From positions 64,001 through 128,000 of the IMG/VR virus record IMGVR_UViG_3300025133_000027: a stretch of DNA of 64,000 bases, one strand, 5' to 3'. Numbering within the stretch: position 1 is the first letter of the stretch; the number at the start of each line of letters is the position of its first letter. Below the pieces are notes generated by a model. The model ran no database searches and had not been told where the DNA came from. It saw only the letters and a program-made list of their open reading frames with translations. The position numbers and the translations under genes were made by a program. The stretch is from a virus. Shown here one piece after another: positions 1-35,991 of the stretch.

Positions 1-39
1 ACAAAAAAATAGAAGAAATGATAGAAGGGAAGGTTAAAA

Positions 40-870
40 GTGCCAGTCAAAGAAAAAATATCGTATTCTGAATTATCTGATTGGAATTTATGTCCATATA
101 AGAGAAAGCTCGTTTACGATGATAAGAATTATTCTGATGGAAGTATTCATACTTACTTTGGAACAGCAGTCCACGAGGCGGCTGAATATCTCGTTAAGGA
201 TAATAGTGTAGATGGTTTCCAAATCTTCTCAGATAAATATGATGAACTCATCGAAGATGTTAAATTCGAGTTCACTGAGAAAGAATATACAAGGTTTAAA
301 TCCTCCACAGTCAAAGAAGTTATAGAAGTTTTTAGAGAATATGGAAGAGCCATTATTCCAGAAATCTTACCAGCAATGACTGCTACATTCGGTGAATATG
401 AAGTGATCGGAACTGAGTATCGGCTATTTGAGGATATCGAAGGGTTTCCTACTAAGTTCAAAGGGCTTGTAGACCTTGTAATTAAGTCCAATGGTCGGTA
501 TTGTGTTCTTGACTGGAAAACATGTGGTTGGGGCTGGGATGCTGAAAAGAAAGCAGACAAGATGACCAATTACCAGATTGTTCTATACAAGAAATATATT
601 GCCCAGAAATTGGGACTTGATTTAAATATGCTTGATACCTATTTTGGTTTACTAAAGAAATCAGGAAAGCCTGGAAAGTATGTTGAAATCTTTAAGTCCA
701 CCTCGGGTAAGAAGAGAACATCAAACGCTACGGAGCTTTTGTCTAATTGTTTGAAAAATATTAACAGTGGTTTTCATGTGAAAAATAGACTTTCGTGTAA
801 TAGGCCGCTATCAAGAAAGATCAAATTTAATATTAGATGCCAGTTCTATAAGACAGATAAATGCAAATAA
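40..870 (+). CDS. PD-(D/E)XK exonuclease, Cas4/RecB-like
   Basis: SYS...CPYK N-terminus, FGTAVH, E...GLVDL...VLDWKT nuclease motifs, YQIVLY, C-terminal Cys cluster (C..C..C). Confidence 0.85.
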   Translation: MPVKEKISYSELSDWNLCPYKRKLVYDDKNYSDGSIHTYFGTAVHEAAEYLVKDNSVDGFQIFSDKYDELIEDVKFEFTEKEYTRFKSSTVKEVIEVFREYGRAIIPEILPAMTATFGEYEVIGTEYRLFEDIEGFPTKFKGLVDLVIKSNGRYCVLDWKTCGWGWDAEKKADKMTNYQIVLYKKYIAQKLGLDLNMLDTYFGLLKKSGKPGKYVEIFKSTSGKKRTSNATELLSNCLKNINSGFHVKNRLSCNRPLSRKIKFNIRCQFYKTDKCK

Positions 871-915
871 ATGCAAAAATATGTTAACAGAACCTAAATA
901 CATGAAGTAGTCTCT

Positions 916-941
916 AGCTCATAACCACGAGGTGAGCTTTG
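916..941 (+). promoter_or_regulatory. Putative hairpin occluding the Shine-Dalgarno (GAGGTG) of the TTG-initiated glycosyltransferase gene
   Basis: agctca-ta-acc (916-926) pairs with ggtgagct (931-938); TTG start follows at 939. Confidence 0.35.
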
Positions 942-2213
942 AGTGAAAAGAAAATAAAGGTTCTGATGATTGCCGACCATCCATATACCCCATCGGGTGT
1001 CGGAACACAGACAAAATATGTAATTGATGCCCTGATAAAATCAGAACGCTTCAGCATAGTGTCTCTTGCAGGTGCGATGAAGCATAAAAGCATGCAACCA
1101 GTTAAAACAGAGGAATATGGGGATGATTTATTAATCATCCCTGTTGAAGGTTATGGAAATCCTGATATCATAAGGACTGTTCTTAGAAAAGAAAGGCCTG
1201 ATATCTTGTGGTTTATGACCGATCCTCGATATTATGAGTGGCTGTGGGCCATGTCCGACGAAATTCGTCCTTTGGTCCCTATGGTCTATTACCATGTCTG
1301 GGATAATTACCCCCTTCCACAGTTCAACAAGCCATATTATGATTCAACTGACTGTATTGCTACCATTTCAAAGGTAACTGATGATGTTGTTAGGCAGGTT
1401 ACTGATGATAGTCATGCTGTTTATATCCCACACGCAGTTAATTCTGAATTTTTTAAACCTATGACAAAAGAACAGAAAGCAGCAGCTAGGAAAGAAAACT
1501 TTAAAACATGGGAAAATGATAAAACTCTCTTCTTTTGGAATAACAGAAATGCCAGAAGGAAGCTAACAGGTACACTTGTTTGGTGGTTTAAGGAATTCTT
1601 AGAAGAAAATGGTAAGGATAGTGCTGTCCTGTTGATGCATACTGACCCAAATGATAGCCACGGTCAGAATATTGAATACATAATGAAGGAAGCAGGGCTT
1701 ACAAATGGCGAAATTCTTATTTCAAAAGATAAAATGCCAGCAGAACAACTAGCCGTGCTATACAATATGGCAGACTATACAATCAACATCTCAGATGCTG
1801 AAGGTTTTGGGTTGGCGACGCTAGAATCTCTTTCTTGTGGAACCCCAATCATCGTCAACAAGACAGGAGGCCTCACCGAGCAAGTAGAAACCCCAGAAGG
1901 GAAGATGACTGGTATCGGGATAGAACCTTGTGCTAAAGCCATTGTAGGCTCTCAGGCTGTCCCTTATATCTATGAGGATAGAATGTCTAAGGAGGACTTC
2001 TTAGCGGCTCTAAAGAAGGCTCACCTAGCTAAGATTGGAGATACTGCTGAGAGGAAAGAGTGGATTAAGACTGGCCTTGAGCACGCTGCCAAAAATTACA
2101 ATTTTGACACATTCAACAAGCAGTGGTTGGAACTAATGCTAGAAGTTCACGAGCGATACGGTTCATGGGAAACAAGAAAAGAATATAAAGCCTGGACTTG
2201 CGAGGAAGTATAA
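939..2213 (+). CDS. Glycosyltransferase, GT-B/GT4 family
   Basis: SGVG N-terminal loop, NRNARRK, SDAEGFGLATLESLSCGTP (E-x7-E). Confidence 0.9.
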   Translation: MSEKKIKVLMIADHPYTPSGVGTQTKYVIDALIKSERFSIVSLAGAMKHKSMQPVKTEEYGDDLLIIPVEGYGNPDIIRTVLRKERPDILWFMTDPRYYEWLWAMSDEIRPLVPMVYYHVWDNYPLPQFNKPYYDSTDCIATISKVTDDVVRQVTDDSHAVYIPHAVNSEFFKPMTKEQKAAARKENFKTWENDKTLFFWNNRNARRKLTGTLVWWFKEFLEENGKDSAVLLMHTDPNDSHGQNIEYIMKEAGLTNGEILISKDKMPAEQLAVLYNMADYTINISDAEGFGLATLESLSCGTPIIVNKTGGLTEQVETPEGKMTGIGIEPCAKAIVGSQAVPYIYEDRMSKEDFLAALKKAHLAKIGDTAERKEWIKTGLEHAAKNYNFDTFNKQWLELMLEVHERYGSWETRKEYKAWTCEEV

Positions 2214-2758
2214 TGAAGATAGTTATGACAAATGCGGAATACCGCAAGCAAATAATGGCAGAGAGGAAAACCTCCCTTGAAAATTCCTGGGTTCTCTTCC
2301 GAAGTGGTCAAAGAATGACATGGGGACCGTCTATTATTGAAAAATATTTAGATGGAACCCCTGTTTATACATGGGTGCCTGAGAGAATTAGCTGGAGAGA
2401 AAGAATATTGGGGCTTTATACTTCTTTGAAGTCATATCTAGTCGCATTCTTTACCCTTACCACTAAAGAAAAATATGTAAGACCTGCTGGTCAGGTGAAG
2501 TTTATCGATAAGGTTTGGAATCCAAAACATTCAGGTGGGATTGACATCGAATATCACTTTAGGGACTATTTTGACACTAAAAGTTTTAAGAGGCAGTTGG
2601 ATCATTTAAACGATCCAAAGGACTATCCAAAGGCAGGACCACACCGTGTTGGTTATATTCACGGAGTTGACGACTCTTCTTATAGAAAAGTTTATGGAAA
2701 AGCTGGAATCAATCCATTCGCACCAAAAAACTCGCCTGTTACGGCAAAGGAACAATAA
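2213..2758 (+). CDS. Hypothetical protein
   Basis: ORF filling the gap between two GT genes, with TAATG overlaps at both ends (start 2213 preferred over 2198). Confidence 0.7.
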   Translation: MKIVMTNAEYRKQIMAERKTSLENSWVLFRSGQRMTWGPSIIEKYLDGTPVYTWVPERISWRERILGLYTSLKSYLVAFFTLTTKEKYVRPAGQVKFIDKVWNPKHSGGIDIEYHFRDYFDTKSFKRQLDHLNDPKDYPKAGPHRVGYIHGVDDSSYRKVYGKAGINPFAPKNSPVTAKEQ

Positions 2759-4008
2759 TGAAAAAGATACTATTAGTAGGACCGATTCTTACACAAACAG
2801 GTTATGGAGAGCACGCTAGAATGATGGCAAGAGCTCTATTGTCAAGACCAGACCTTGTTGACCTGTATATACATCCGATTAATTGGGGGCAATCATCTTG
2901 GTTGTGGGAAGACGACAACGAAAGAAGGTTGATTGATCAATTGATCAACAAGACCGCTTTTGCAAGACAGCAACGAACACAGTTTGATATCTGCCTAATG
3001 GTTACTATTCCAAACGAATGGGAGCAATATCGAGCAGCTCCTATCAATATTGGTGTCTGTGCGGGCATTGAAACAGACAGGGTAAGTCCTGAGTGGATTA
3101 TCGCAGCCAATAAATTTGCAGATTCAATAATTGTCCCATCAGAGTTCGCAAAGAACATCTTTGAAGGAACAATCTATAACAATAACGGGCAGAACCTACA
3201 GCTCCAAAAGAAGATTGATGTTGTACACTATCCAACAAAGAAGTTTGCAGCGATGCCAGAACTCGACTTGGGTTTAAAGAATGATTTCAACTTCTTGGTG
3301 GTCGCACAATGGGGACCTCGCAAGAATATGGAAGGAACACTCGCTGCATTCTATGAAGAGTTCAAGAATGATGAAGTTGGTTTGGTGCTGAAAACAAGCA
3401 AGGCTAAAAACTCATTGATGGATAAAGAAGTAGTTATGAGAGCTTTGAATAGTGTCAAGGGAGCATTCCCGGATGCCAAGTGTTCTGTGAACCTACTACA
3501 CGGATATTTAACAGACCAAGAAGTAAACAGTCTTTACACTCATTCGAAGATTAAAGCCATTGTAAACCTTGGGCACGGTGAAGGGTTTGGTTTACCACTG
3601 TTTGAGGCAGCATATTCAGGTCTTCCAATCATCACACACGATTTTGGTGGCCAGAAGGACTTCCTATATGCTCCAAACAAAGCTGGCAAGACTAAACCAA
3701 TGTTTCAGAAGGTTTCATACGACGTAGGGCCTATTGCCAAGGATGTTGTTTGGGACGGTGTTCTCGTTGAAGGTTCGAACTGGGCTTATGTTAACAAGCT
3801 TGACGCCAAGAACAAAATGAGAGATACTTATGAAAACTATCACCTCGCTAAGTCAAAGTCAGGAAAGTTAAAGACCTGGGTTCTTGAGAACTTTAAGAGC
3901 GAAACTCTTAGTGAACAGGTTATAGGACTTGTTTGTGGTGAAGCTTCAATAAATGAACTATCTGATGAGGACTGGCTTGAATCTCTTGGAATTGAGGTGC
4001 ATGATTAA
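2758..4008 (+). CDS. Glycosyltransferase, GT-B/GT4 family
   Basis: TGYGEHAR, IIVPSEF, GPRKN, GEGFGLPLFEAAYSGLP. Confidence 0.9.
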   Translation: MKKILLVGPILTQTGYGEHARMMARALLSRPDLVDLYIHPINWGQSSWLWEDDNERRLIDQLINKTAFARQQRTQFDICLMVTIPNEWEQYRAAPINIGVCAGIETDRVSPEWIIAANKFADSIIVPSEFAKNIFEGTIYNNNGQNLQLQKKIDVVHYPTKKFAAMPELDLGLKNDFNFLVVAQWGPRKNMEGTLAAFYEEFKNDEVGLVLKTSKAKNSLMDKEVVMRALNSVKGAFPDAKCSVNLLHGYLTDQEVNSLYTHSKIKAIVNLGHGEGFGLPLFEAAYSGLPIITHDFGGQKDFLYAPNKAGKTKPMFQKVSYDVGPIAKDVVWDGVLVEGSNWAYVNKLDAKNKMRDTYENYHLAKSKSGKLKTWVLENFKSETLSEQVIGLVCGEASINELSDEDWLESLGIEVHD

Positions 4009-4844
4009 TGAAAGTAGCATTTGTAGCCGATTTTTTTGCTAATGAGATTTGTGGAGGTGGAGAATTAAACAATGAAGAATTGATTCAGATGATTAGAGCG
4101 AGTGGGCACCATGTAAGCAAAATTAAAGCAAAAGATTTTGGGATCAAGCATTTTACTCATGATAAATACATAATCTCCAATTACGTTAGTCTATCAAGTG
4201 GTGCAAAAGAAATCCTCCAAGAGAAAGGAAGATATTCAATTCTTGAGCACGATCATCAGTATTTATCGAGCAGAAATCCTGCTGGTTATGAGAATTTCAT
4301 AGCAACATTTGATGATATTATAAATCTTAATTTTTATGAAAAAGCAACTAAAGTTTATTGTCAGAGCCAGTACCATGTAGATATCGTTAAAAGAAATCTT
4401 AATATAGATAATATCGTAAATCTTGGTGGGAATCTATGGAGCCTTGAAACTCTCGATTTCATCGAGAAACTTTCTTTGGAGAAGAAGAGTGATAAAACCG
4501 CCATTTTAAACTCAGTGATTCCAAATAAAAACACATCAACTTGCATTTCCTTTTGTATCCGTGCAAAAAAAGACTATGAACTCATTTCTTCTTCTGACAA
4601 CAGAGAGTTTCTAAGACAAATGAGCCTGTGTAAAGAGTTGGTTTTTTTGCCAAAATCACCCGAAACATTATCAAGGCTTGTTGTTGAAGCAAGGATGCTA
4701 GGACTTACTGTTATAACTAATAAATTAGTTGGCGCAGCAAAAGAAGAGTTTTTTAAAATGAAAGGAAGAGAATTAATTCAATTTTTTAGAGATAAAAGAG
4801 GCGAGATCTTATCGGAAATTTTAAACTTTATTGAGGAAGAATGA
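4008..4844 (+). CDS. Glycosyltransferase, GT-B fold
   Basis: GGGELN N-terminal loop; FLPKSPETLSRLVVEARMLG (E-x7-E). Confidence 0.75.
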   Translation: MKVAFVADFFANEICGGGELNNEELIQMIRASGHHVSKIKAKDFGIKHFTHDKYIISNYVSLSSGAKEILQEKGRYSILEHDHQYLSSRNPAGYENFIATFDDIINLNFYEKATKVYCQSQYHVDIVKRNLNIDNIVNLGGNLWSLETLDFIEKLSLEKKSDKTAILNSVIPNKNTSTCISFCIRAKKDYELISSSDNREFLRQMSLCKELVFLPKSPETLSRLVVEARMLGLTVITNKLVGAAKEEFFKMKGRELIQFFRDKRGEILSEILNFIEEE

Positions 4845-5761
4845 AGATTGCTTTTATAGGAAATTTCACTCAAATATATCATGAAGAAGGAAAGGCTCGT
4901 TCTCTTGCTAGGCTTGGGCATGATGTGTATCGATTTGCGGAAAATACTTTTAATAATGAAGATGTAGAAGAAATTATTAGTCTTAATGTTGATCTATTGA
5001 TATATGCAAAATTAAATATATCAATAGATAAAAAAGATTTTCTTCAAAAAATGGGGCAGCACGGAATAAAACGAGTGTGTTGGCATCCCGACTTGATGTT
5101 CAATACTGAAAAAGAGAGATGGTTAGTTTCGAATCCTACATATACTTTATCTGATTATATATTTACATCTGATGGTGGGCACCAAAAAGACTTTAAGAAG
5201 CTTGGCCTGAATCACTACTGTATACGGCAAGCTATCTACGACAAGTGTTGTTATAGGTCAGAAAAGGAACTTATGTCTTTTAAAGACGTAGAAATTATTT
5301 TTGTTGGTGGGAGCAGTCACGTTTTGCATTCTCATCGCAAAGAGTTTCTTACGATACTATCAGATAAATTTGGAAATAAATTTCGTCATGTCGGGACTTT
5401 TGACGAAGAATGGCGGAATGATGCTTTGAATGATTTATTTAATAGCGTTAGTATCGTTATTGGAGATAGTGTATACTCTCCTTACTACTGGTCGAATAGG
5501 CTATATGAGACAATTGGGCGAGGAGCTTTTATTATTCATAATAAGATTGAAGGTATCGAAGATGAATACGCAAAAGGATTACATTTTGATACCTACGAGA
5601 ATGGAAACTATGATGACTTAATCTCTAAAATAGAGCTTCACTTACAAGACACAGAGGAACTCAAGAAACAAGGAGTTGCTGGTATGGAATATACACGTAG
5701 AAACCACACATTAATGAACAGAGCACAACAAGTTATTTCTATCATCGAGAGGAGAAAATAA
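4841..5761 (+). CDS. Glycosyltransferase, CgeB/Glyco_trans_1_2-like
   Basis: IIFVG...R, WSNRLYETIGRG, C-terminal NHTLMNRAQQV. Confidence 0.8.
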   Translation: MKIAFIGNFTQIYHEEGKARSLARLGHDVYRFAENTFNNEDVEEIISLNVDLLIYAKLNISIDKKDFLQKMGQHGIKRVCWHPDLMFNTEKERWLVSNPTYTLSDYIFTSDGGHQKDFKKLGLNHYCIRQAIYDKCCYRSEKELMSFKDVEIIFVGGSSHVLHSHRKEFLTILSDKFGNKFRHVGTFDEEWRNDALNDLFNSVSIVIGDSVYSPYYWSNRLYETIGRGAFIIHNKIEGIEDEYAKGLHFDTYENGNYDDLISKIELHLQDTEELKKQGVAGMEYTRRNHTLMNRAQQVISIIERRK

Positions 5762-6405
5762 TGGGAGCAGCCAACAATAATAATCGAGCAGAGTTAGAGG
5801 CTTACGAACAAATTGTTAAAAACTTAAATCTCAAACCAAAGACTTTGTTTGAGATTGGTTCTAAGGACGGAGCCGATGCTAAACGACTTGCAACTTTCTT
5901 TGAAATTAATCCTATTAATGTTTACATAATCGAGGCTCACCCTTTCTTTTTTCAGAATATTAAATATTCTTATCCTGAATATAATTGTTTCCATTTGGCA
6001 GCTTCGGACAAAAATGAAGAACTAATCTTCAACGCAGCTCTTAATTACGACGATGGAAGGTCCTCGATTCTTGAGCGAGATATTTACGATTCTAATTCTT
6101 TTAGTAAGGTAAGTGTTTCAGGAGTCCGTTTGGATTCTTTTTTGGATGTTAATAATATTGAAGAAGTAGATTTGTTAAAAATTGATGTTGAAGGAGCCGG
6201 TATGCAAGTGTTAGCTGGTTTTGGAGATGCTTTAACCAAGGTTAAGACACTGCAAATAGAAGCAGAATATAAGAATATTTGGAAGGACTCATCTACTTGG
6301 AACGAGATACGTGATTTCTTATTGAAAGACTTTAATCTTTATTGGAAGAAAGATATTTCTGGTATTCAAATAGATTCTATCTGGGTTAATAAGAGGATCG
6401 TATGA
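5761..6405 (+). CDS. FkbM-family SAM-dependent methyltransferase
   Basis: FEIGSKDG, IEAHP, RLDSF, VDLLKIDVEGA. Confidence 0.9.
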   Translation: MGAANNNNRAELEAYEQIVKNLNLKPKTLFEIGSKDGADAKRLATFFEINPINVYIIEAHPFFFQNIKYSYPEYNCFHLAASDKNEELIFNAALNYDDGRSSILERDIYDSNSFSKVSVSGVRLDSFLDVNNIEEVDLLKIDVEGAGMQVLAGFGDALTKVKTLQIEAEYKNIWKDSSTWNEIRDFLLKDFNLYWKKDISGIQIDSIWVNKRIV

Positions 6406-7427
6406 GAGTAGGAACTATAACATATGCAACGAATACTGGACTTGGTATCTTAGCGAAAGAGTTTTATGATAACAAAATCATTAATGAGGTTTTGATAAAA
6501 ACTCATAGCAGACTTAAGACAAATTATTTTTGGTATCCAAATTCCCCGTCGCTTCCTCCTTCTGAGGATATGATACTTCAAAATTTCCCTTCTAAACATG
6601 ACAATGAGGCTATTGATAATTTCCTAACGAGAATAGATATCCTACTTTTGTTCGAAATCGAATGGTCAAAAGGACTGATTGAGGCAGCAAATCGGGCCGG
6701 GGTCAAAACTGTTTTGATGCCAATGTATGAATGCACTCCCTACCCGTTGAAAGCAGACTGTTACCTAACGGTTTCCGATCTAGACGATATTTATTACAAA
6801 AAGATGTATCCTAGAGGGAACGTTAGAAGGATTAACGTCCCTTCAAACTCAAGAGTAACCTGGAAAGAACGCAAAACAGCCAGGGTATTTATCCACAATG
6901 CAGGTAATACATCTATAAAAGATAGGAACGGCACATCTGCGCTTATTAAAGCAATTCAATATGTCAAAACCAAGAATATAGAGCTTAGGATTCGGACGCA
7001 AGAGGATATATATAAAATCCCAAAGGATTCAAGGGTTAAATTAGAATATAAAGATAAAAAGTTTAGCTCGCTCTGGGAGGACGGTGATGTTTTCCTTTTC
7101 CCAGAAAGTTGGAACGGACTTTCTCTTCCTCTTCAAGAGGCTCACGCATCTGGGCTGCTTGTTATGGCTGGGAATAGGTTCCCTGTGAATAGATGGCTTC
7201 CTCGTGAACCTCTAATACCAGTTTCGGATTATAAAAAGTATAAAGTGTATCCGAGGGTAGAATTATTTGCGGCATGCTATGAACCGAAAGAAATTGCAAA
7301 AAAGATTGATGAGTTCGCTAATACGGATATTACAAGGTTCTCGGAAGCTGGTAAGATATGGGCCGAGAAAAATTCTTGGGAAGTCCTAAAACCCCAGTAT
7401 GAAAAGATTTTTACAGAATTATTATAG
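6402..7427 (+). CDS. Glycosyltransferase, GT-B/GT4-like
   Basis: TGLG N-terminus; DVFLFPESWNGLSLPLQEAHASGL; C-terminal NSW. Confidence 0.8.
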   Translation: MRVGTITYATNTGLGILAKEFYDNKIINEVLIKTHSRLKTNYFWYPNSPSLPPSEDMILQNFPSKHDNEAIDNFLTRIDILLLFEIEWSKGLIEAANRAGVKTVLMPMYECTPYPLKADCYLTVSDLDDIYYKKMYPRGNVRRINVPSNSRVTWKERKTARVFIHNAGNTSIKDRNGTSALIKAIQYVKTKNIELRIRTQEDIYKIPKDSRVKLEYKDKKFSSLWEDGDVFLFPESWNGLSLPLQEAHASGLLVMAGNRFPVNRWLPREPLIPVSDYKKYKVYPRVELFAACYEPKEIAKKIDEFANTDITRFSEAGKIWAEKNSWEVLKPQYEKIFTELL

Positions 7428-7438
7428 AAGGAGAATAA

Positions 7439-8392
7439 ATGAGAATAATTAGAGAGTCAAAAGTTTGTGTAATTGGTGGCGCTGGTTTTTTAGGCTCGCA
7501 CTTAGTAAACCACTTGGTTAACGATAGGAATTGTGAGGTTTTAGTTCTTGATAACCTGATAACAGGCCTTAAAAGCTATATTAATGATAAGGCAAAGTTT
7601 GTTTGGTTTGATATTCGAGATGAGCAAAGTGAATTAGCGAATATTTTAAAAAAACATAATATAGAATATGTTTTTAACTACGCCGCAGAACCATACATTC
7701 CAGAATGTTTTGAGAGGCCAATGCATTTTTTTGATATTAATGCAACATCTGTACTGCGAGTATTAAATGCTTGCCAACTTGCTGAAGTAAAGGGACTATT
7801 ACAAGTTTCTTCGGCAGAGATATACGGGGACATGAAGGGAAAAATTACAGAAGAAGATCCAGTTGTGCCTCATTCGACATACGGCGTGTCAAAAGCTGCC
7901 GCTGATGGATTAGTTCAGGTTCGTTGGAAAGAGGCAGGAGTCCCTGCTATTGCTATGAGGCAGTTCAATTGTGTTGGCGAGCGTGAGACTCACGAATATG
8001 TAATTCCAGAGATTATTAATCAACTAGATAAAACCAATAAAATTAAGTTAGGAAATAATTCCTTTAGAGATTTCCAATATGCAGGGGATGCTGTTGCGAT
8101 GGCGGTTCTCCTACTTGAAAAAGGCGAATTTGGTGAGGTCTATAACATGGGAAGTGAAGGTGGAATCCAAATTTATGATCTTGCAAGATTAATTGGAAGT
8201 TTGATGGGGCACGAGACAGTTGACATCATCGTGGACAAGAAACGAGTTCGTCCTTGGGAAATTTGGCATTTACAGTCAGATAATACTAAATTATATTCTG
8301 TAATTGGTAAGAGAGAACCTACCTCTCTAGAAGAATCTCTACGAAAAACTATTAAGTATTATTATGAGAATAACAAGAAGTGGGACTGGTAA
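7439..8392 (+). CDS. NAD-dependent NDP-sugar epimerase/4,6-dehydratase (extended SDR)
   Basis: GGAGFLG Rossmann motif, SSAEIYG, YGVSK (YxxxK), RDF, RPWE. Confidence 0.9.
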   Translation: MRIIRESKVCVIGGAGFLGSHLVNHLVNDRNCEVLVLDNLITGLKSYINDKAKFVWFDIRDEQSELANILKKHNIEYVFNYAAEPYIPECFERPMHFFDINATSVLRVLNACQLAEVKGLLQVSSAEIYGDMKGKITEEDPVVPHSTYGVSKAAADGLVQVRWKEAGVPAIAMRQFNCVGERETHEYVIPEIINQLDKTNKIKLGNNSFRDFQYAGDAVAMAVLLLEKGEFGEVYNMGSEGGIQIYDLARLIGSLMGHETVDIIVDKKRVRPWEIWHLQSDNTKLYSVIGKREPTSLEESLRKTIKYYYENNKKWDW

Positions 8393-9369
8393 TGTTTCCA
8401 TACCAGATATTAGAAAGAAAATTTTCAGAGTATATCGGAGTTTCTGACTCTGTTGCAGTGAGTACCGGCACGGCTGCCCTACATGTAGCACTAGAGGCGC
8501 TTGAGTTACCGAAAGACTCCGAGGTCTTAGTTCCAGAGTACACGATGATAGCAACAGCGTGGGCTGTCACCTATGCAGGACTTAAACCTGTATTCGTTGA
8601 TTGTGATGATGACTTGCTTATAGATATTTCTAAGATTGAAGCCTTGATAACAGAAAAGACTAAAGTGCTTATGCTTACTCATATATATGGAAGGGTCGTT
8701 GATATGGATGCTATTATGGAGATAGCAAGAAAATATAAACTAAGAGTAATTGAAGATGCTGCGGAAGCCCATGGGTGTGAATGGAGAGGGCGAAAAGTCG
8801 GGTCATATGATATTGGATGTTTCAGTTTTTATCGAAACAAGATAGTCTGTGGAGAAGAGGGGGGGATTGTAACTTCGGATGATAAAAATTTTATATCAAT
8901 AGTAAATGATATGAAGAGTATGTCTTTCGGTAGTGAGCATAATTATCACCATAAAAGAATAGGTTTTAATTATCGAATGACAGACAGTCAGGCCAATCTG
9001 ATTATTAAATCACTTAAAAACGTTGAGAAAAACATAAGCCTGAGAAGGAAAAAACAAGAACTTTATGACAACTTGATTGATAATACATATCATATGGGAA
9101 CAAGAGATGTTCCATGGGTTTATGATATTTGTGTTCCGAAAAACAAGAAGAATTTATTAGTTAAAAGACTTCAGGAGGCTGGTATTGCAGCAAGGCATGG
9201 ATTCAAACCTGTTTCAAGTTCCGCACCGTTTTATAAAAATGGATTGCCAAACTCACTTAAATATTCTGAGAATATATTGTATCTTCCTCTCGGGGAAAAT
9301 GAGACAGAGGAGAGAATAGCTAAGATTGCTGAAGTAGTAAATACCTGGCTAGAGGTGATGAATGTATAA
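8392..9369 (+). CDS. DegT/DnrJ/EryC1/StrS sugar aminotransferase (perosamine synthase-like)
   Basis: SxGTAALH, IEDAAEAHG, FSFYRNK with PLP lysine, EGG, GFNYRM; start 8392 by TAATG overlap. Confidence 0.92.
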   Translation: MFPYQILERKFSEYIGVSDSVAVSTGTAALHVALEALELPKDSEVLVPEYTMIATAWAVTYAGLKPVFVDCDDDLLIDISKIEALITEKTKVLMLTHIYGRVVDMDAIMEIARKYKLRVIEDAAEAHGCEWRGRKVGSYDIGCFSFYRNKIVCGEEGGIVTSDDKNFISIVNDMKSMSFGSEHNYHHKRIGFNYRMTDSQANLIIKSLKNVEKNISLRRKKQELYDNLIDNTYHMGTRDVPWVYDICVPKNKKNLLVKRLQEAGIAARHGFKPVSSSAPFYKNGLPNSLKYSENILYLPLGENETEERIAKIAEVVNTWLEVMNV

Positions 9370-9751
9370 ATTAATTAAATCAACAGAGTTAGAAACTTAT
9401 AAAAATTCAATTTATTATAAAACATTGAAAACTTACCTTACCAATCAAAAACTTTTGAGTCATAATATAATACATACTAGTAAGCCAACTACTATGATTT
9501 TTTATGGAAATAAAAATAAAGACGTAAAGTCAATACCTGTAAAGGTAACTGGTGAGTCAAGGATGAAAGATCTCCCACGAGATAAATTTTTCATTGTGAA
9601 TATACTCGATAGTGAGAGAAAAAGAATGCGGTTGATGATTCTTAATAGAATAGCTAACAAAGAAAGTGAATTCTCTGATGAAGAAATGCATAAGATATCT
9701 GAAAACTTGATTTACAGATATGTAGAAGTTAAAGAATTTATAGAAGAATAA
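9362..9751 (+). CDS. Hypothetical protein
   Basis: 129-aa ORF with GAGG RBS, overlapping the upstream stop. Confidence 0.65.
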   Translation: MYKLIKSTELETYKNSIYYKTLKTYLTNQKLLSHNIIHTSKPTTMIFYGNKNKDVKSIPVKVTGESRMKDLPRDKFFIVNILDSERKRMRLMILNRIANKESEFSDEEMHKISENLIYRYVEVKEFIEE

Positions 9752-9767
9752 ACAATAAGGACAAAAA

Positions 9768-10121
9768 ATGAAAACCGAAATAAAATTTGTCTCGAAAGGT
9801 TGGGGTTTTGAAAAGTGGATTGTAAATAAAGAAGAATATTGTGGTAAGCTTTTATTCTTCGCAAAAGGAAAGAAGTGTTCGTGGCACTTTCACAAATTAA
9901 AAGACGAAGTTTTTTATATCCAATCTGGGAAAGTAACTGTTCATTTTTCTAGCGGAGATGATCTTACCAAGTCAGAAAATCTTCTCCTTCGCAAAGGAGA
10001 TAACTTTCACGTACCAATTGGAATGCGACACCGGATAGAAGCTCACGAAGATTCCGAAGTGTTTGAGTTTTCAACCCAGCATTTCGATACAGATAGCCAT
10101 AGAATAGAAAAAGGAGATTAA
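9768..10121 (+). CDS. Cupin (mannose-6-phosphate isomerase/sugar isomerase-like)
   Basis: KGWGFE, SWHFHKLKDE metal motif, PIGMRH. Confidence 0.85.
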   Translation: MKTEIKFVSKGWGFEKWIVNKEEYCGKLLFFAKGKKCSWHFHKLKDEVFYIQSGKVTVHFSSGDDLTKSENLLLRKGDNFHVPIGMRHRIEAHEDSEVFEFSTQHFDTDSHRIEKGD

Positions 10122-10122
10122 A

Positions 10123-10350
10123 ATGGATACTAAAATGGAATTTAAGGAAATGAAGCTATCGACTCAAGCACTAGGTGCCTTGATGATGGCACTACAAAAG
10201 TCCCTACTTGAGCAATCGGACATTACCCCCGTCCTACAAGGCTTTAGCTTTGTCGATACAGAAGAGGGTCTCTGGATTAAGAACCCGCCTCTAGTCAAGT
10301 TTGACTGGCTCAAGGTCGATGAGAATGGAGACGAAGTACAGGATGCCTAA
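10123..10350 (+). CDS. Hypothetical protein
   Basis: ORF with AGGAG RBS, contiguous with neighbours. Confidence 0.65.
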   Translation: MDTKMEFKEMKLSTQALGALMMALQKSLLEQSDITPVLQGFSFVDTEEGLWIKNPPLVKFDWLKVDENGDEVQDA

Positions 10351-10573: not shown

Positions 10574-10908
10574 TGACATTTTTAATAGTAATGTTAGTTT
10601 TGACAACAGTGTTTCTCATACTTTCACTTGCAATAAACATCGCAGCATTTTGGTATCTTAAGCAGTTGCTTAAATCTTATCGAAATATGGGTAATGCTAT
10701 TCTTAAGATGAGAGACGTGATGCATGAATTCGCAGAACACATTAGTTCCATGTATAAGAAAGAATTATATCGAGGAGATCCAACTATTCGAGGAATAGTT
10801 GCCCATGCTAAAGAGGTGGTCGAAGAAATCAATCTTTTCGCTGGTTCAATAGTAATAGAGGAAAACGAGGAGAGACCCAATGGCGGCAACGACACCGAAG
10901 AAGACTAA
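10573..10908 (+). CDS. Membrane-anchored hypothetical protein
   Basis: N-terminal hydrophobic helix followed by an amphipathic/coiled region. Confidence 0.65.
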   Translation: MTFLIVMLVLTTVFLILSLAINIAAFWYLKQLLKSYRNMGNAILKMRDVMHEFAEHISSMYKKELYRGDPTIRGIVAHAKEVVEEINLFAGSIVIEENEERPNGGNDTEED

Positions 10909-11584
10909 GACCAAAAAGAACATGTATTTTACAATGGTGCATGAACAAGCAATTCTGGACTATGTGAAGTCTGAAGATAAAGACGAAAAGGAGCGGCTCT
11001 ATATTTCACTCTTAGAGCCCGCCTTTACAGAGATGATTGATAAGATTGTCTATACTTTTAAGTTTAATTCCCTCCCGAATATTGATGTATTAAAACACGA
11101 CTGCCTCTTGCAAGTTGTAAATGTGTTGTGCAAGTATGATAAAGATAGAGGCTCCAAAGCCTTTGCATATTTCTCAGTCATCGTAAAAAATTGGTTTATC
11201 CAACAGACTAAGAAAAATAAGAAACGAATGATTATAGAGCAAGACTCTGATGATAAAATCAGAGAAGCTTATCATAGCCAACTCATAGTCCATAATCCCT
11301 ATCATAAAACAAGAGAACAGCAAGAGTTCATTGACGGCTTAGGTAAACAAATTGTTAACTGGAAAGAAATGCCAAATCTTGGAGTTAATGAATTAAAAGT
11401 TATTCATGCTATCGAACACCTCTTTGCAAATATAAATGAAATAGAATTTTTTAGTAAGAAAGCTATTTATCTATACCTGAGAGAGTTAACTGGGCTTACT
11501 ACAAAAGAGATAGTTGCCGAGTTGACAAAGTTGCGAAAAAGCTATAAAGTCTTTAAAAAAGGGTGGGAACGGTCAGCAGTATGA
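10880..11584 (+). CDS. Late transcription sigma factor, T4 gp55-like
   Basis: N-terminal YF motif, D..L...KYD...KAFAYFSVIVKNWF resembling the gp55 region-2 NPFAYFT motif, C-terminal HTH-like segment. Confidence 0.7.
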   Translation: MAATTPKKTKTKKNMYFTMVHEQAILDYVKSEDKDEKERLYISLLEPAFTEMIDKIVYTFKFNSLPNIDVLKHDCLLQVVNVLCKYDKDRGSKAFAYFSVIVKNWFIQQTKKNKKRMIIEQDSDDKIREAYHSQLIVHNPYHKTREQQEFIDGLGKQIVNWKEMPNLGVNELKVIHAIEHLFANINEIEFFSKKAIYLYLRELTGLTTKEIVAELTKLRKSYKVFKKGWERSAV

Positions 11585-11898: not shown

Positions 11899-11901
11899 CA
11901 T

Positions 11902-18980: not shown

Positions 18981-20773
18981 TGCCAAAACAAAAACCACCA
19001 GTATCATATACGAACAGAGACTTCTCTTCAATTAAGAAGGATTTGATTAACTATGCCAAAGTATATTATCCAGAGACATACAAAGACTTTAACGACGCCT
19101 CTTTCGGCTCGTTGTTGTTTGATTTAGTGTCTTATGTTGGCGACTCAATGTCGTTTTATATCGATTATCAAATGAACGAATCGATGATGGATACTGTGTT
19201 AGACCCAGACACGGCCATTAAGGTCGCTAAAAGAAGAGGTTATAAATTAAGTGGCTCTCCATCCTCAACCGGAACTGCTGCTTTTTATGTAACCGTGCCC
19301 GCGACTTCCGATGGAACCCAGCCAGAAACTGACCTTATCCCAATTCTAAAGAAAGGCTCGACACTTTCCTCAACCTCTGGAGCGAGCTTCATATTAAGTG
19401 AGGATGTAGATTTTTCAAAAGCATCAACTTTAATCACAGTTGCAGAGGTAGCTAACGACGGGTCGGTATCATCTTATGCTATGAAGGCTTACGGAGAAAT
19501 CCTATCAGGTGAGTTAAAGAGTGAATTCTTTACGGTTGGTTCTTATGAAAAATTTAGGAAACTTACTCTTGATGATGATAATGTTACTGAGATTTTACTA
19601 GTGACTGATTCTGAAGGTAGGCAATATTACGAAGTTGATTACTTGGCGCAAGATACGGTAATGAAGCCAATAAGAAATCTTGGAACTGATTTTGAACAAG
19701 CACCTTTCATAATTAAAGAGATGCAGGTGCCAAGAAGGTTTACTGTTGATTATGATTTAGAAGGTGTGGCAACAATCCAGTTTGGACATGGTTCTGAACA
19801 AGAACTGATTGATAAAACATTTCCAGACCCAAGAGATGCAGTCCTTCAATTACACGGCAGGGATTATATATCAGATACTTCTTTTGACCCAAACCTAGTT
19901 AGCAAAACTGAAAAGTTTGGAATATCTCCAACAGATACTACTCTCTTGGTTGAGTATCGTAAGAACACCGAAGCTGTTTTAAATATAGCTGTTGGGGGTA
20001 TCGACTTAGTATCTAATGCTATTATTGAATTCCGACAAAGTAATACTTACTCGAAACAACAAGCACTTTCGTTAATATCAGAATTTGAGGTTGAGAATGA
20101 AGAAAGAATTGTTGGTCAAGTATCTTTATTGAATGTTGATGAAATAAGAGAACTAGCTCTTGCAGCAAACGCAGCGCAAAATAGAGCTGTGACAAAGAAT
20201 GACTATGTTTCTGTTATCTATAGAATGCCTGCTAAGTATGGCAATTTAAAAAGAGCCAATGTTTTACAAGATAAAGACTCTTTCAAGCGTAACTTAAATA
20301 TATATGTGTTGGCAGAAGATGAAAATGGAAAGTTAGTAAAAGCGAGCACGACCCTTAAAAGAAATCTTAAGGCTTGGATCTCAAACTACAAGATGATGAA
20401 TGATACAATTGATATCTTGGATGGAAATATTGTTAATATTGGACTTGAGTTTGAAGTAATTTCTAGTATCGGGGAGAACAAGACTAGGGTCTTAAATGAT
20501 TGCCTACGTGCTCTTAAGGAAAATTTAGGTAGTAAACTAAATATGGGAGAGCCTCTCATCCTTGGTAGGTTATATAAAATCCTAAATGATGTTGATGGGG
20601 TAGAAGATACCAAGTCTGTTAATATAGTAAAGAAGACAGGTTCTTCTTATAGCAACGTAGTTTATGAGGTTAAAGAGAGACTTAAGTCTTCTGGAAGAAT
20701 TTTAACAGTTGCAGAGAATGCTGTTCTAGAAATAAAATATTTCGACACAGATGTAACCGGGGTGGTAATGTAA
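18980..20773 (+). CDS. gp6: Baseplate wedge subunit, gp6-like
   Basis: YTNRDFSSIKKDL, DFN.AS.G, QNRAVTKNDY. Confidence 0.9.
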   Translation: MPKQKPPVSYTNRDFSSIKKDLINYAKVYYPETYKDFNDASFGSLLFDLVSYVGDSMSFYIDYQMNESMMDTVLDPDTAIKVAKRRGYKLSGSPSSTGTAAFYVTVPATSDGTQPETDLIPILKKGSTLSSTSGASFILSEDVDFSKASTLITVAEVANDGSVSSYAMKAYGEILSGELKSEFFTVGSYEKFRKLTLDDDNVTEILLVTDSEGRQYYEVDYLAQDTVMKPIRNLGTDFEQAPFIIKEMQVPRRFTVDYDLEGVATIQFGHGSEQELIDKTFPDPRDAVLQLHGRDYISDTSFDPNLVSKTEKFGISPTDTTLLVEYRKNTEAVLNIAVGGIDLVSNAIIEFRQSNTYSKQQALSLISEFEVENEERIVGQVSLLNVDEIRELALAANAAQNRAVTKNDYVSVIYRMPAKYGNLKRANVLQDKDSFKRNLNIYVLAEDENGKLVKASTTLKRNLKAWISNYKMMNDTIDILDGNIVNIGLEFEVISSIGENKTRVLNDCLRALKENLGSKLNMGEPLILGRLYKILNDVDGVEDTKSVNIVKKTGSSYSNVVYEVKERLKSSGRILTVAENAVLEIKYFDTDVTGVVM

Positions 20774-22215
20774 TGGGCGTAAAGAGATTTTATTCTACAA
20801 AAGATAATACAATTACAAATGCTTTTAAGGCAGGCTTGACTATACGAGGAACTGGCTCTAATATGGGCGAATCAGATATTCTTGAGGTATACTCAATCTA
20901 TGGACAAGCATCTTCGGCTTCCTCTGAGAAGTCAAGAATTTTAATTGATTTTCCTATTTTAACAACTATCGCTCAAAGTAGGGATTCTGGAGAACTACCT
21001 ACTAGTGGAACTGATAATCTATCTTTCTACTTGAGGCTCTATAATGCAGAACACTCTCAAACACTCCCAAAACAATTTACACTTGTGGTTGCGCAAGCAT
21101 CAAGTTCCTGGAATGAGGGAACTGGTCTTGATATGGATGAGTTTTCTGACAGTGGCTACTCCAACTGGATATACCGCAGTAGCTCGGCACCATGGGTTGA
21201 CGAAGGTGGTGATATATTATCGGGTTCGGCAGACACCACAGGTTCACAGCTCTTTGAACTAGGAACCGAAGACTTGCTTATCAATGTAACACCTATTGTT
21301 GAAGACTGGCTAAGTGGTGATAGTTCTTCAAATGGATTTGCTGTTTTCTTGACATCCTCGCAGGAAACTGCTACCGAGTCTTATTATACAAAGAAATTTT
21401 TTGCTAGGAATAGTGAATTTCATATGAAAAGACCTTGTCTAGAAGCAAGGTGGAATTCTTCAAGGGGAGATGATTCCGAGACTTTTTATAAGAGTAGCTC
21501 GTTAGCACCGGCAGCAGATAATCTAAACACTTTATATCTTTACAACAAGATTAGAGGACAATTAGTTGATATTCCATCTGTTGCTCAGGGTGAGATCCTT
21601 GTGTCAGTTCACGAAACTGTTGGGACCCCTGCTCTGCCCTTGCCTGTTGGTGGGGGTGTGGTAGCTGGTGCTGACACTAATGTGACCGGCTCATGGGCTT
21701 CTACGGGCATTTATGAGGCTACTTTTGCGATGAGCCACTCAATCTCTAGCTTCGTGCCTGTATGGAAAACTAATACGGAAGAGTTTCACACCGGCTCAAG
21801 TATAACTGTAAACTCATTTGATTCACAAGACTACTACCCTGATAGAGAATATATATTTAAAATTAAGAATCTTAAAAAATCTTACAGTGAAGACGAAAAG
21901 ATGAGATTAAGACTCTTTGTAAGACATAAAAATTGGTGCCCTACTAATTATACAGTATCTAACACAACAGCTTCTAATGAAATACTTGAAGATGTATTTT
22001 GGAAAGTTGAACGTGTTGTTGATAAGTTTGATATCATTGACTATGGAACTGGTAGTACTCAACACACTCTACTTTCATATGATAGTGAAGGGAACTACTT
22101 TGATTTTGACACAAGCATTCTTGAAAAAGGTTATCAATATGCATTTAAATTTATATATAACATTGCAGGTGAGTATCATGAAGCAAAGAATGAGTTTAGA
22201 TTTAGGGTTGAGTGA
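20773..22215 (+). CDS. Putative baseplate/tail structural protein (DNRLRE-like beta domain)
   Basis: KDNTI...SRILIDF...W.EG.G...W...GGD...NVT.IV.DW...NGF...RP.LE pattern; lies between gp6 and the gp7-like gene. Confidence 0.6.
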   Translation: MGVKRFYSTKDNTITNAFKAGLTIRGTGSNMGESDILEVYSIYGQASSASSEKSRILIDFPILTTIAQSRDSGELPTSGTDNLSFYLRLYNAEHSQTLPKQFTLVVAQASSSWNEGTGLDMDEFSDSGYSNWIYRSSSAPWVDEGGDILSGSADTTGSQLFELGTEDLLINVTPIVEDWLSGDSSSNGFAVFLTSSQETATESYYTKKFFARNSEFHMKRPCLEARWNSSRGDDSETFYKSSSLAPAADNLNTLYLYNKIRGQLVDIPSVAQGEILVSVHETVGTPALPLPVGGGVVAGADTNVTGSWASTGIYEATFAMSHSISSFVPVWKTNTEEFHTGSSITVNSFDSQDYYPDREYIFKIKNLKKSYSEDEKMRLRLFVRHKNWCPTNYTVSNTTASNEILEDVFWKVERVVDKFDIIDYGTGSTQHTLLSYDSEGNYFDFDTSILEKGYQYAFKFIYNIAGEYHEAKNEFRFRVE

Positions 22216-22217
22216 TA

Positions 22218-30116: not shown

Positions 30117-30900
30117 GAAAGAAGATGTTATTGAACTAAGAATAACAAAGACTGGTAGGGAGAAACTTTCAAAAGGGATATTCCAGCCAGACTCCTATGC
30201 TTTTTTTGATAGTGATATTATTTATGATGATGGAAGTTCTACGGAGCAAAATAATATCGAAGAAAGAATCAAGTCAGATCTTAAACTTAGAACCCTATCT
30301 TCAAACAAAACCTCTGAGCCTGCAAAGGTGAATACTGCTGACTACAAATTTTATAGTGAGATCGGAACAGTTGACCTCGTAACGAGTAGCGTCCCTGCTT
30401 GGAAGATAAAAGCACTAGAAGGTGAATTTGACCTATCTAATTTTAATCATTACCCAAACACAATTAAAACACTTCCGACTTCTGAGACTGTTGCTAATAT
30501 TGAAAGGATTCCACAATTAAACATTGAAATGGTATATAATCTTTATAATGAAATAGTTGAAGTAGATCCTGGTGATGGAAAGACGGTCTCCCCTACTAAC
30601 AAATTAGTTTCCTATTTTGGAAAAGAGTCAGAAGATATCTTAATAGACGTGGACGAACTGAACTCGGTGTACTTGGGCGAAGATGCTGAATATGAAATTG
30701 AGGTTTATAAGATAAACTATAATAACGATACTGGTTCTTTGGTTCTTTTAGAACCTGATGGAGATATCTATGACCCAAAGAGTGCTAGTCATTATATAAA
30801 AATATCTCTTGATGATCAAATACATAAGACAGAGAAAGATAAGACAAAGAATATTTATGGGGAATCACTAATCCAAGATATTGATAAGTGTGAGGACTAA
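30100..30900 (+). CDS. Baseplate/tail-collar-like structural protein
   Basis: LRITKTGREKLSKG...YAFFDSDIIY, paralogous to the N-terminus of 33964; GGAG RBS. Confidence 0.55.
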   Translation: MTFQNKKEDVIELRITKTGREKLSKGIFQPDSYAFFDSDIIYDDGSSTEQNNIEERIKSDLKLRTLSSNKTSEPAKVNTADYKFYSEIGTVDLVTSSVPAWKIKALEGEFDLSNFNHYPNTIKTLPTSETVANIERIPQLNIEMVYNLYNEIVEVDPGDGKTVSPTNKLVSYFGKESEDILIDVDELNSVYLGEDAEYEIEVYKINYNNDTGSLVLLEPDGDIYDPKSASHYIKISLDDQIHKTEKDKTKNIYGESLIQDIDKCED

Positions 30901-30902
30901 TA

Positions 30903-33946: not shown

Positions 33947-33963
33947 ATTAATGGAGAAATATA

Positions 33964-34899
33964 ATGGCATTTTTAGGTAACGATGGAGACATAATTTTAG
34001 ACGCAGTTTTAACTGACGCTGGACGAAAACGATTGGCGGCTGGTGATGGAACTTTCCGAATTTCAAAGTTTGCGCTAGGTGATGATGAGATTAATTATGC
34101 TCTGTATGATTCAACAAATGCAAATGGCAGTGCTTATTATGATCTTGATCTGCTTAAAACCCCAGTTTTTGAGGCGATAACTCACTCTGGAGCTGGTTTA
34201 TCAAGCAAGCTATTGACGATTCCAAACTCTGAGCTATTGTTCTTACCATTATTAAAACTAAATGTGAAAAGAGCTCCTTTGTCATCACTTAATAACTACA
34301 TCCTTGTTGTAAATGATACTTTGGCAGAGGCTCTTACTGGTGGAGCTACTTTACCAAACTATAGAACAATCTTTAGTGGACAAACAGGCTATATTGATGG
34401 CAGAAGCTCTGCAAAGGCTGCGGAAACTTTAACGGCACGAGTTGACCAGGGGCTTGACAACCAAGAAGCTGGTGGTGCCGGAACCGCAATGCTTGAATCT
34501 CTTGAAGAGTCAAGATACTTAGTGTCTATGGACAACAGGTTTTGTGAGCTAACATCAGTCGGTGAAAACCCAGAAGCCGCAGAAATAGTATATGTCTCAG
34601 CAGATAAAACAAGCACATACTACATCTCAAGTGCGGCAAACCCTGAGTATTTTGCTCCTGCTCCAAGCAAGGAAAATACAAACATTGCAGGACCAGTTGG
34701 AAGACAGTTCCAATTCAGTATCAAGGGTTCTCCATCAATCCTGAACAATACAGAATATCTTTTTAATACATACGGAAGAAGTGTTGTGGATTATAATGGA
34801 ACAGGAGAGACTGTTAACGTTATCGATACAAATATCAAGATTCAAGGCGGAACACAGGGATCTACAATCAATATCCCAGTCCAACTCGTATCACAATAA
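33964..34899 (+). CDS. Baseplate/tail-collar-like structural protein
   Basis: ILDAVLTDAGRKRLA...ISKFALGDDEINY resembles the N-terminal half of tail-collar (DUF3751-like) domains. Confidence 0.6.
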   Translation: MAFLGNDGDIILDAVLTDAGRKRLAAGDGTFRISKFALGDDEINYALYDSTNANGSAYYDLDLLKTPVFEAITHSGAGLSSKLLTIPNSELLFLPLLKLNVKRAPLSSLNNYILVVNDTLAEALTGGATLPNYRTIFSGQTGYIDGRSSAKAAETLTARVDQGLDNQEAGGAGTAMLESLEESRYLVSMDNRFCELTSVGENPEAAEIVYVSADKTSTYYISSAANPEYFAPAPSKENTNIAGPVGRQFQFSIKGSPSILNNTEYLFNTYGRSVVDYNGTGETVNVIDTNIKIQGGTQGSTINIPVQLVSQ

Positions 34900-34908
34900 G
34901 GAATAAAA

Positions 34909-35979: not shown

Positions 35980-35991
35980 GGTTCTAAACCT

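Follow-up and report, generated by a model that had tools for sequence, protein, structure and literature searches.

Positions 939-10121 of the 64,000-nucleotide stretch analysed here (the window), which corresponds to positions 64001-128000 of the 176,254-bp IMG/VR record IMGVR_UViG_3300025133_000027 (97% complete), carry an island of sugar-active genes that we consider, with high confidence, to be a soluble, phage-restricted glycosylation module made up of a pair of GT4-family glycosyltransferases (GTs) and a swappable cassette of further enzymes. The best single reading of its role, to which we give a probability of about 45%, is that the acceptors are the phage's own tail proteins, which would be modified at the tripeptide [S/T]-G-S. 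It ranks above action on the host envelope or on another cytoplasmic acceptor, both of which appear unlikely, and above glycosylation of DNA, which appears very improbable. The phage is an uncultured, marine, T4-like virus; a first-pass annotation of the window had called it a jumbo phage, a label that does not fit a genome of 176 kb, below the 200-kb threshold. Statements below on the absence of modification and export genes cover the whole 176,254-bp record.

Eleven co-oriented open reading frames (ORFs) on the + strand lie within 939-10121, at the coordinates first given for them. They are listed here together with the nuclease gene that precedes them:

40..870, + strand: PD-(D/E)XK (Cas4-like) nuclease, head of a syntenic trio (PF12705 2.6e-12)
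939..2213, + strand: GT4a, the first conserved GT4 glycosyltransferase (Glycos_transf_1 1.5e-11; phrog_2170 1.5e-27)
2198..2758, + strand: 186-aa ORF between GT4a and GT4b, no family, possibly not functional
2758..4008, + strand: GT4b, the second conserved GT4 glycosyltransferase (Glycos_transf_1 1.6e-7)
4008..4844, + strand: compact 278-aa GT-B glycosyltransferase (no Pfam match; predicted fold)
4841..5761, + strand: GT-B glycosyltransferase (Glyco_trans_1_2 PF13524 8e-15; phrog_28745 1e-29)
5761..6405, + strand: FkbM-family methyltransferase (PF05050 4e-17; TIGR01444 8.5e-18)
6402..7427, + strand: weak GT-B-like protein (Pfam E 0.0045; phrog_2170 4e-5)
7439..8392, + strand: nucleoside diphosphate (NDP)-sugar short-chain dehydrogenase/reductase (SDR) of the 4,6-dehydratase or decarboxylase type (Epimerase 1.6e-48)
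8380..9369, + strand: DegT-family pyridoxal phosphate-dependent sugar aminotransferase (PF01041 3.7e-81)
9362..9751, + strand: 129-aa ORF, no family, inside the operon
9768..10121, + strand: small cupin (Cupin_2 9e-9; phrog_7851 over its full length, 1.7e-55)

Neighbouring island genes overlap or are spaced by no more than 16 nt (-16 to +16), often with an ATGA or TAATG overlap. We thereby confirm the co-oriented, coupled block of five GT-B enzymes, FkbM, SDR, DegT and cupin genes that the first-pass annotation had described, one of the GT-B members being weak: three of the five are recognised by Pfam, one by its predicted fold and one only weakly. The enzymes had also been called soluble, and this holds, no 19-residue window in any island protein reaching transmembrane-level hydrophobicity.

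The hallmarks of GT4 enzymes are an EX7E motif and a basic R/K phosphate-binding motif. Both members of the pair score above the Pfam gathering cut-off of 26.4 bits for Glycos_transf_1 (44.6 bits for GT4a and 31.5 for GT4b), and their catalytic-type motifs are invariant, R207-K208 and E288-x7-E296 in 20 GT4a sequences and R188-K189 and E275-x7-E283 in 12 GT4b sequences. Since the R/K and EX7E motifs are both intact and invariant in GT4b, the possibility that it is a dead partner or chaperone resembling GtfB was ruled out; judging by these residues, GT4a and GT4b are apparently both active enzymes. The best family matches of GT4a, though weak, are to BshA, MshA and sucrose-phosphate-synthase-type enzymes, all far below the family cut-offs, and it also matches the chlorovirus GT4 enzyme B736L (3oy2) at 1.3e-7.

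A structural model of the GT4a-GT4b complex scored 0.85, compared with 0.00 for the best of three controls; in a rough calibration based on our own alignments, 58 of 80 solved complexes attained this mark, compared with 2 of 110 mismatched pairs. The modelling runs share at least 94% of contacts, and the predicted local distance difference test (pLDDT) value of the partners is at least 89. In the modelled interface, the C-terminal tail of GT4a (residues 418-424, with near-invariant W419 and E423) packs against strand 243-251 of GT4b, whose side of the contact includes the invariant residues K241, C242, H248 and G249. The model thus supports binding of GT4a to GT4b.

In this genome only, the two genes are parted by a 560-nt insertion that carries the 186-aa ORF 2198-2758; it is missing from all relatives, in which GT4a abuts GT4b. 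This ORF has no relative in Pfam, PHROG, NCBIfam, PDB or Atlas, and its Atlas model has a pLDDT of 0.54. A 3.2-kb insertion is present at the same junction in another relative (L119), and the junction seems to tolerate insertions.

The pair and its surroundings were compared with 13 IMG/VR records in which GT4a is 49-56% identical. The order nuclease-GT4a-GT4b is found in 11 of the 13, the contigs of the remaining two being cut at the pair. The nuclease gene lies immediately 5′ of GT4a in 12 of the 13 records, in 11 of 12 contigs from metagenome-assembled genomes (MAGs), in Flavobacterium phage immuto, in Microcystis phage Mel-JY01 and in the uncultured phage LR756508. An orthologue of GT4b adjoins GT4a in all 15 records searched, with a weak match (E 1.2e-4) in Rhodothermus phage RM378. 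The complete trio occurs in immuto, where a different cassette follows, and in Mel-JY01, and RM378 has the GT pair only. By capsid similarity, immuto, RM378, Mel-JY01 and LR756508 are the nearest records. The 12 MAG contigs (from species-representative genomes) have the same order as far as each extends, and their taxon labels are inconsistent, which indicates phage DNA and not a cellular system. In metagenomes, clustering of GT4a at 90% identity gives at least 7,760 clusters, most of them of marine origin, and the trio as a whole is seen again in thousands of contigs of marine phages. At positions 303801-306604 of LR756508, a 484-kb phage, the nuclease and GT4a are present and GT4b is not detectable, possibly a natural partial loss of the pair.

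In the IMG/VR relatives, the pair is followed by a variable stretch and then, where the locus reaches that far, by a small ORF and a gene for a gp55-like sigma factor. Two relatives (L011 and L013) have no cassette at all, the sigma module lying within about 1 kb of the GT pair, and a third (L014) has most of this window's cassette in common. The cassettes of nine relatives (70 ORFs) encode NeuB (5), CMP-sugar cytidylyltransferase (4), PseB-type dehydratase (5), GDP-mannose dehydratase (6), RmlD-type reductases (7), FkbM and others. In one of them (L015), the genes make up the greater part of a pseudaminic/legionaminic-type pathway, in which no aminotransferase was found; here the slot encodes a nonulosonic-acid pathway. 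The fixed nine-enzyme multi-sugar pathway of the first-pass annotation gives way to a conserved GT4a/GT4b pair followed by a hypervariable cassette, which, judging by gene content, varies like a surface-glycan locus. Since the pair is conserved in phages of Bacteroidota and Cyanobacteria, the acceptor is more likely to be phage-encoded than to be a host-specific envelope glycan.

Sister cassettes also encode a third GT4 protein of 660-690 aa fused to a faint MptE-like (Maf-like) domain (L015:2067-10576, and also L006, L010 and L017); in L015 its gene adjoins two NeuB genes and genes for a GNAT protein, a CMP-sugar cytidylyltransferase and a PseB-type dehydratase. These MptE-like domains score below threshold (28.7 and 23.7 against 34.6 bits), PDB sequence and NCBIfam searches with these proteins were empty, and a stand-alone 268-aa protein gave an AlphaFold2 (AF2) pLDDT of 57 and no significant PDB match. 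This lead was dropped and is not counted as evidence.

The remaining enzymes of the cassette in this window point to the chemistry of the sugars. The 278-aa protein 4008-4844 (AF2 pLDDT 85) matches GT-B enzymes with a Foldseek probability of 1.0 and a template modelling (TM) score of up to 0.66, its matches including BshA, PimA, MshA, Gtf3/GtfC and T4 alpha-glucosyltransferase (AGT); it retains GGGE and E-x7-E motifs. A homologue follows the GT pair in eight relatives, and in L014 it is fused to a homologue of the next gene. The weak GT-B-like protein 6402-7427 has a Pfam match below the cut-off and aligns with GT4b in hhalign with a probability of 18% (E 1.4e-3), N238..E246 being placed opposite EX7E; a 50% identical homologue is present in L014. 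The FkbM protein is a probable sugar O-methyltransferase.

An NDP-sugar dehydratase had been predicted at 7439-8392. An SDR of the 4,6-dehydratase or decarboxylase type is indeed encoded there, and its nearest solved structure is the dTDP-glucose 4,6-dehydratase 6bi4. A true RmlB was rejected, because the TIGR01181 score of 160 bits misses the cut-off of 365 and the T-D-E triad of RmlB is replaced by S-A-E. Retention of the Glu would fit a 4-keto-forming dehydratase or decarboxylase. The nearest solved structures of the DegT protein are the sugar aminotransferase 7b0m and the perosamine synthetases 3dr7 and 3bn1. With 329 aa, it begins about 30 residues into the Pfam model; since the homologue in L014 is equally short, this appears to be a naturally N-terminally shortened subfamily. 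From these assignments, the SDR and DegT enzymes together should produce a 4-amino-deoxy sugar of the perosamine/viosamine class. The cupin is possibly a keto-sugar isomerase or epimerase, and copies 62-67% identical to it are found in two cassettes (L005 and L017) that have no DegT match. ORF 9362-9751 has no match in Pfam, PHROGs, NCBIfam, PDB or Atlas. No nucleotidyltransferase was found in the whole genome, from which it follows that the nucleotide sugars must start from host pools.

Candidate acceptors came from a scan of all tripeptides, unbiased and corrected for the composition of each protein. In the structural module, TGS ranks first, with 32 occurrences where 6.3 are expected (p 3e-13), and SGS ranks fourth (23 against 9.1 expected). 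Both are at expectation in the rest of the genome, and the control tripeptides SGT, TGT, GSG and AGS are at expectation everywhere. The excess is located in the tail sheath, in three baseplate/tail proteins and in a 2634-aa protein, a set that covers sheath, baseplate and fibre-like proteins. The corresponding regions are:

20773..37914, + strand: baseplate/tail proteins rich in [S/T]-G-S by motif counts, candidate acceptors
61084..64000, continuing 53 nt beyond the window, + strand: tail sheath (phrog_23 6.5e-58), candidate acceptor

Observed and expected numbers of [S/T]-G-S are 6 and 0.9 in 20773-22215, 13 and 3.4 in 22212-30116, 5 and 0.9 in 34909-35979 (356 aa), and 8 and 1.2 in 35992-37914. 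In the sheath, 7 sites compare with 1.5 expected; all of them fall within residues 165-509 and thus outside the conserved C-terminal core, and most are not positionally conserved. The excess that had been noted in exterior structural proteins is therefore real and specific, with TGS at the top of the structural module. No excess is seen in the terminase, portal or capsid; a glycan shield over the whole virion, as first proposed, is not supported, and any coat would be on the tail and baseplate.

The same tripeptides stand out in other carriers of the pair. In whole-proteome rankings, SGS is 1st and TGS 4th in immuto, SGS 4th and TGS 8th in RM378, and SGS 4th in Mel-JY01; at 80 related baseplate loci, [S/T]-G-S is 3.1-fold enriched, compared with 1.2-1.6-fold for control motifs. 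Three phages, LR756511, cyanophage Syn33 and the Acinetobacter phage Morttis, show no excess. Neither Syn33 nor LR756511, which by its capsid is the nearest relative without GT4a, has a GT4a match, and the GT4a matches did not include Morttis either. Where GT4a is present and GT4b is lacking, in LR756508, the excess is weak, and the sheath proteins of this phage have no [S/T]-G-S. The predicted co-occurrence of the GT4 pair with the motif thus stands in so far as carriers are enriched and the three non-carriers are not, with the restriction that the carriers form one clade. Likewise, an excess kept by relatives that lack the GTs, the finding named in advance as contrary to an acceptor sequon, was not seen in these three phages, and within the clade there is no clean non-carrier with which to look for it.

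Taken together, these observations can be accommodated by a cytoplasmic glycosylation system that would work without a lipid carrier on the phage's tail, baseplate and sheath proteins. A heterocomplex of GT4a and GT4b would prime newly made tail proteins by attaching one or two initial sugars, drawn from host nucleotide sugars, at Ser/Thr of exposed [S/T]-G-S. The strain-variable cassette would then extend and decorate this primer, in this phage with three further GT-B enzymes. The SDR and DegT enzymes would supply a 4-amino-deoxy sugar (perosamine/viosamine class), and the cupin and FkbM methyltransferase could cap the glycan. The acceptor, the identity of the sugars and the order of the steps are what we infer from the gene content and the motif counts.

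The closest precedent for such a system is virion glycosylation in mycobacteriophages, which was reportedly described by Freeman et al. in Cell Host Microbe in 2023. According to PMC12619734, the mycobacteriophage glycans are located at the C-termini of capsid and tail-tube subunits. Soluble phage-encoded GTs are proposed to decorate the phages' own structural proteins in the cytoplasm, which is the likeness to the island. In contrast, the capsid is not enriched here, and the candidate sites are internal [S/T]-G-S tripeptides of sheath, baseplate and fibre-like proteins; there is a conserved GT4 pair with a swappable sugar cassette, and the host range and lineage differ.

In the bacterial GtfA/GtfB system, two GT-B proteins form a cytoplasmic complex that primes Ser/Thr within short Ser-rich motifs of adhesins, and small GT-B enzymes extend the primer. 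The parallels are two GT-B proteins in a complex, here by the model only (score 0.85), and the presence of Gtf3 and GtfC among the top fold matches of the 278-aa GT-B. Unlike the non-catalytic GtfB, GT4b keeps EX7E and R/K; there is no detectable orthology, and the proposed acceptors are phage tail proteins instead of secreted adhesins. The T4 alpha- and beta-glucosyltransferases are likewise phage-encoded GT-B enzymes expressed before the late genes. DNA glucosylation by these enzymes requires synthesis of 5-hydroxymethylcytosine, which is absent here, and immuto DNA is unglycosylated.

Giant viruses (the chloroviruses, and the Megavirinae with viosamine-type fibril glycans; PMC10117803, PMC9614988) resemble the island in having a 4,6-dehydratase, an aminotransferase, methylation and several GTs, in their clade-specific sugar sets and in the match between GT4a and B736L. 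They differ in their eukaryotic hosts, acceptors and enzymes, and the sequence kinship is at the generic GT4 level only. Maf flagellin O-glycosyltransferases working with pseudaminic or legionaminic acid (PMC4065374; 10.1101/2020.06.03.131540) also glycosylate Ser/Thr of a self-assembling surface protein in the cytoplasm, and NeuB, a cytidylyltransferase and a PseB-type dehydratase are encoded in the slot of sister phages; this window, in contrast, has no nonulosonic-acid genes. The lipopolysaccharide (LPS)-type clusters of T4-like cyanophages are also large, variable sets of sugar genes, with target unknown, in marine T4-like phages, but they lie near hli, phoH and tRNAs (PMC3037559), and cyanophage Syn33 has neither the nuclease-GT4a-GT4b head nor an [S/T]-G-S excess.

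Other targets have to be weighed against tail proteins. Glycosylation of phage DNA bases, as by the T4 alpha-/beta-glucosyltransferases or TET-linked glycosyltransferases, would agree with a pair that adjoins a nuclease and lies near replication genes and with the T4 alpha-glucosyltransferase among the fold matches of the 278-aa GT-B, and phage GTs with diverse DNA glycans are known (10.1101/2023.12.21.572611). However, no route to a 5-hydroxymethylpyrimidine was found in the genome, the ThyA/hydroxymethylase family (PF00303) and C5-methylase (PF00145) being absent; TGT/DpdA is absent as well, so that the absence of hydroxymethylase and base-modification genes noted earlier holds genome-wide. 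ThyX is present. A search for Tet_JBP gave no match in the genome, but its control was also silent, and this result carries no information. Nucleoside analysis of phage DNA, proposed as a check, has been published for immuto, which carries a syntenic island: by liquid chromatography with ultraviolet and mass-spectrometric detection, dA, dC and dT are canonical and dG is fully replaced by fdPreQ1 (324 Da), and a glycosylated nucleoside is not reported (10.1101/2023.04.13.536721). We consider DNA a most improbable target. Remodelling of the host envelope is less easily set aside, but we still regard it as unlikely. Undecaprenyl-linked or other lipid intermediates on the inner side of the host membrane would be the substrates of the soluble GTs, the host would supply the initiating transferase, flippase and ligase, and LPS, capsule or exopolysaccharide (EPS) would be altered during infection, for example for superinfection exclusion or to block readsorption of progeny. 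T4-like cyanophages do carry large LPS-type clusters, of unknown role (PMC3037559); EPS, LPS and glycolipid GT4 enzymes are among the nearest NCBIfam families to GT4a and the long paralogue, though every score falls far short of its cut-off; the island lies upstream of the candidate late promoters; and the cassette is as hypervariable as an O-antigen locus. Yet Bac_transf (PF02397), WecA-type (PF00953), Wzx (PF01943) and Wzy (PF04932) families are absent genome-wide, with positive controls in 10-13 genomes, in agreement with the earlier statement that no Wzx/Wzy/GtrAB-type component is visible; a host-encoded transferase, flippase and polymerase could serve instead. Moreover, L011 and L013 have the pair alone, without sugar-synthesis genes, the pair and its invariant residues are kept across Flavobacterium, Rhodothermus and Microcystis phages, whose hosts' envelope glycans differ, and the tail-specific motif excess is left unexplained.

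Just as doubtful is another cytoplasmic acceptor, which could be a phage protein that is not part of the virion, a protein conserved among hosts, or a small molecule or lipid of the kind used by BshA, MshA or MGlcDAG-synthase enzymes, the [S/T]-G-S excess then being an unrelated structural feature of the clade's tail folds. The best weak matches of GT4a (BshA, MshA and sucrose-phosphate-synthase-type), the linkage of the pair to a nuclease and its place among replication genes in distant relatives, and the hydrophobic flanks and partial conservation of the motif are all compatible with it. Set against this, none of the BshA/MshA-type matches comes near its family cut-off, and several GTs together with amino, methyl and nonulosonic sugars would be an elaborate outfit for making a small molecule. 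Moreover, phages without the pair show no motif excess, and the excess is weak in the phage that lacks GT4b.

The features at the downstream edge of the island are:

10123..10350, + strand: family-less ORF directly 3′ of the cupin gene
10880..11584, + strand: gp55-like late sigma factor (phrog_234 4e-7), downstream edge of the variable slot
11463..11470, + strand: first CTATTTAT copy 3′ of the island, inside the 3′ end of the sigma gene

Copies of the motif (A)CTATTTAT(A) are biased in strand, 20 being on the + strand of the genome and 2 on the - strand. They are found at window positions 11463, 48574, 50538, 52634, 55878 and 61035, with 14 more in the genome, and the motif lies 16-50 nt upstream of the sheath gene, of the genes flanking the capsid gene and of other genes. 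We propose CTATTTAT as a candidate late promoter of this phage lineage, TATTTATA replacing the TATAAATA of T4. With 9 occurrences against 5.9 expected, the consensus of T4 late promoters, TATAAATA, shows no enrichment, and sigma-70 and terminator scans did no better than shuffles. Since no CTATTTAT precedes the island and the first copy after it is in the sigma gene, the island together with this gene has the appearance of a pre-late transcription unit.

Several points weigh against tail proteins as the acceptors. No CTATTTAT is found upstream of the island, nor anywhere between genome positions 50417 and 75463, a span that includes the island; a pre-late unit fits any target, which weakens the argument from adjacency, and the leading of the block into late sigma and baseplate genes, offered at first as support, turns out to be weak evidence. 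The GT genes are not embedded in a late structural operon, the arrangement of the mycobacteriophage type, and the neighbours of the pair in RM378 and Mel-JY01 are replication genes. The carriers form one clade by capsid similarity, so that the link between motif and genes is not independent and may reflect shared ancestry. A clean non-carrier was not found among 40 records of close relatives: 17 of them are without GT4a, most not reaching the site, and the three with the most upstream sequence among these (G017, G022 and G025) have contigs that end inside or short of the cassette, while every close relative that reaches the site (23 records) has the pair. In Mel-JY01 (L018:7998-9489), GT4a is annotated as two coding sequences in different frames, due to either a frameshift or a sequencing error, yet the motif excess is strong. 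The flanks of the motif are hydrophobic, and some positions are conserved across 30% identical homologues in one paralogue family; the same would be expected of a beta-turn structural motif. The GT4 family also covers enzymes for lipids, small molecules and polysaccharides, the complex score may partly reflect likeness to solved GT-B dimers, and literature searches gave no glycan on virion proteins of this clade. In sum, the virion-glycosylation proposal of the first-pass annotation keeps its soluble enzymes, the lack of lipid-carrier and base-modification machinery and the motif excess, and loses the fixed pathway, the whole-virion shield and the late-gene adjacency.

With tail proteins as acceptors, a broader picture can be drawn, which we put forward tentatively and with less confidence than the tail-protein reading itself. 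In an abundant marine T4-like clade, a heterodimeric GT4 primer would read [S/T]-G-S on assembled-surface tail proteins, and cassettes for amino, methylated and nonulosonic sugars, swapped in the manner of O-antigen loci, would produce strain-specific tail coats evolving like bacterial surface antigens. If this is true, the at least 7,760 clusters of GT4a would place the system among the commonest protein-glycosylation systems in the sea, and phage strains would differ along a new axis, that of the hypervariable cassette. Glycan-coated tails could change adsorption, host range, aggregation and stickiness to marine gels, and could alter how host defences or grazers recognise the phage. For glyco-engineering, a primer of two enzymes that reads three residues could also be a compact tool. 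The question can be put to a direct test in three cultured relatives, immuto, RM378 and Mel-JY01.

Additional searches of the island and its surroundings were essentially negative: megablast of the island against the phage collection gave no match, tblastn with a 1208-aa neighbouring protein gave none, and Rfam on positions 1-12000 returned a single chance-level miRNA match and nothing else. Two other proteins of the structural block deserve mention. The major capsid protein (53969-55804, 611 aa) matches the T4-type capsid family only from about residue 327 onward, its N-terminal extension of about 320 residues having no assigned family. Within the same block, 39945-43046 encodes a 1033-aa SbcC-like protein with an N-terminal metallophosphoesterase-like match, which may be an SbcD-SbcC fusion.

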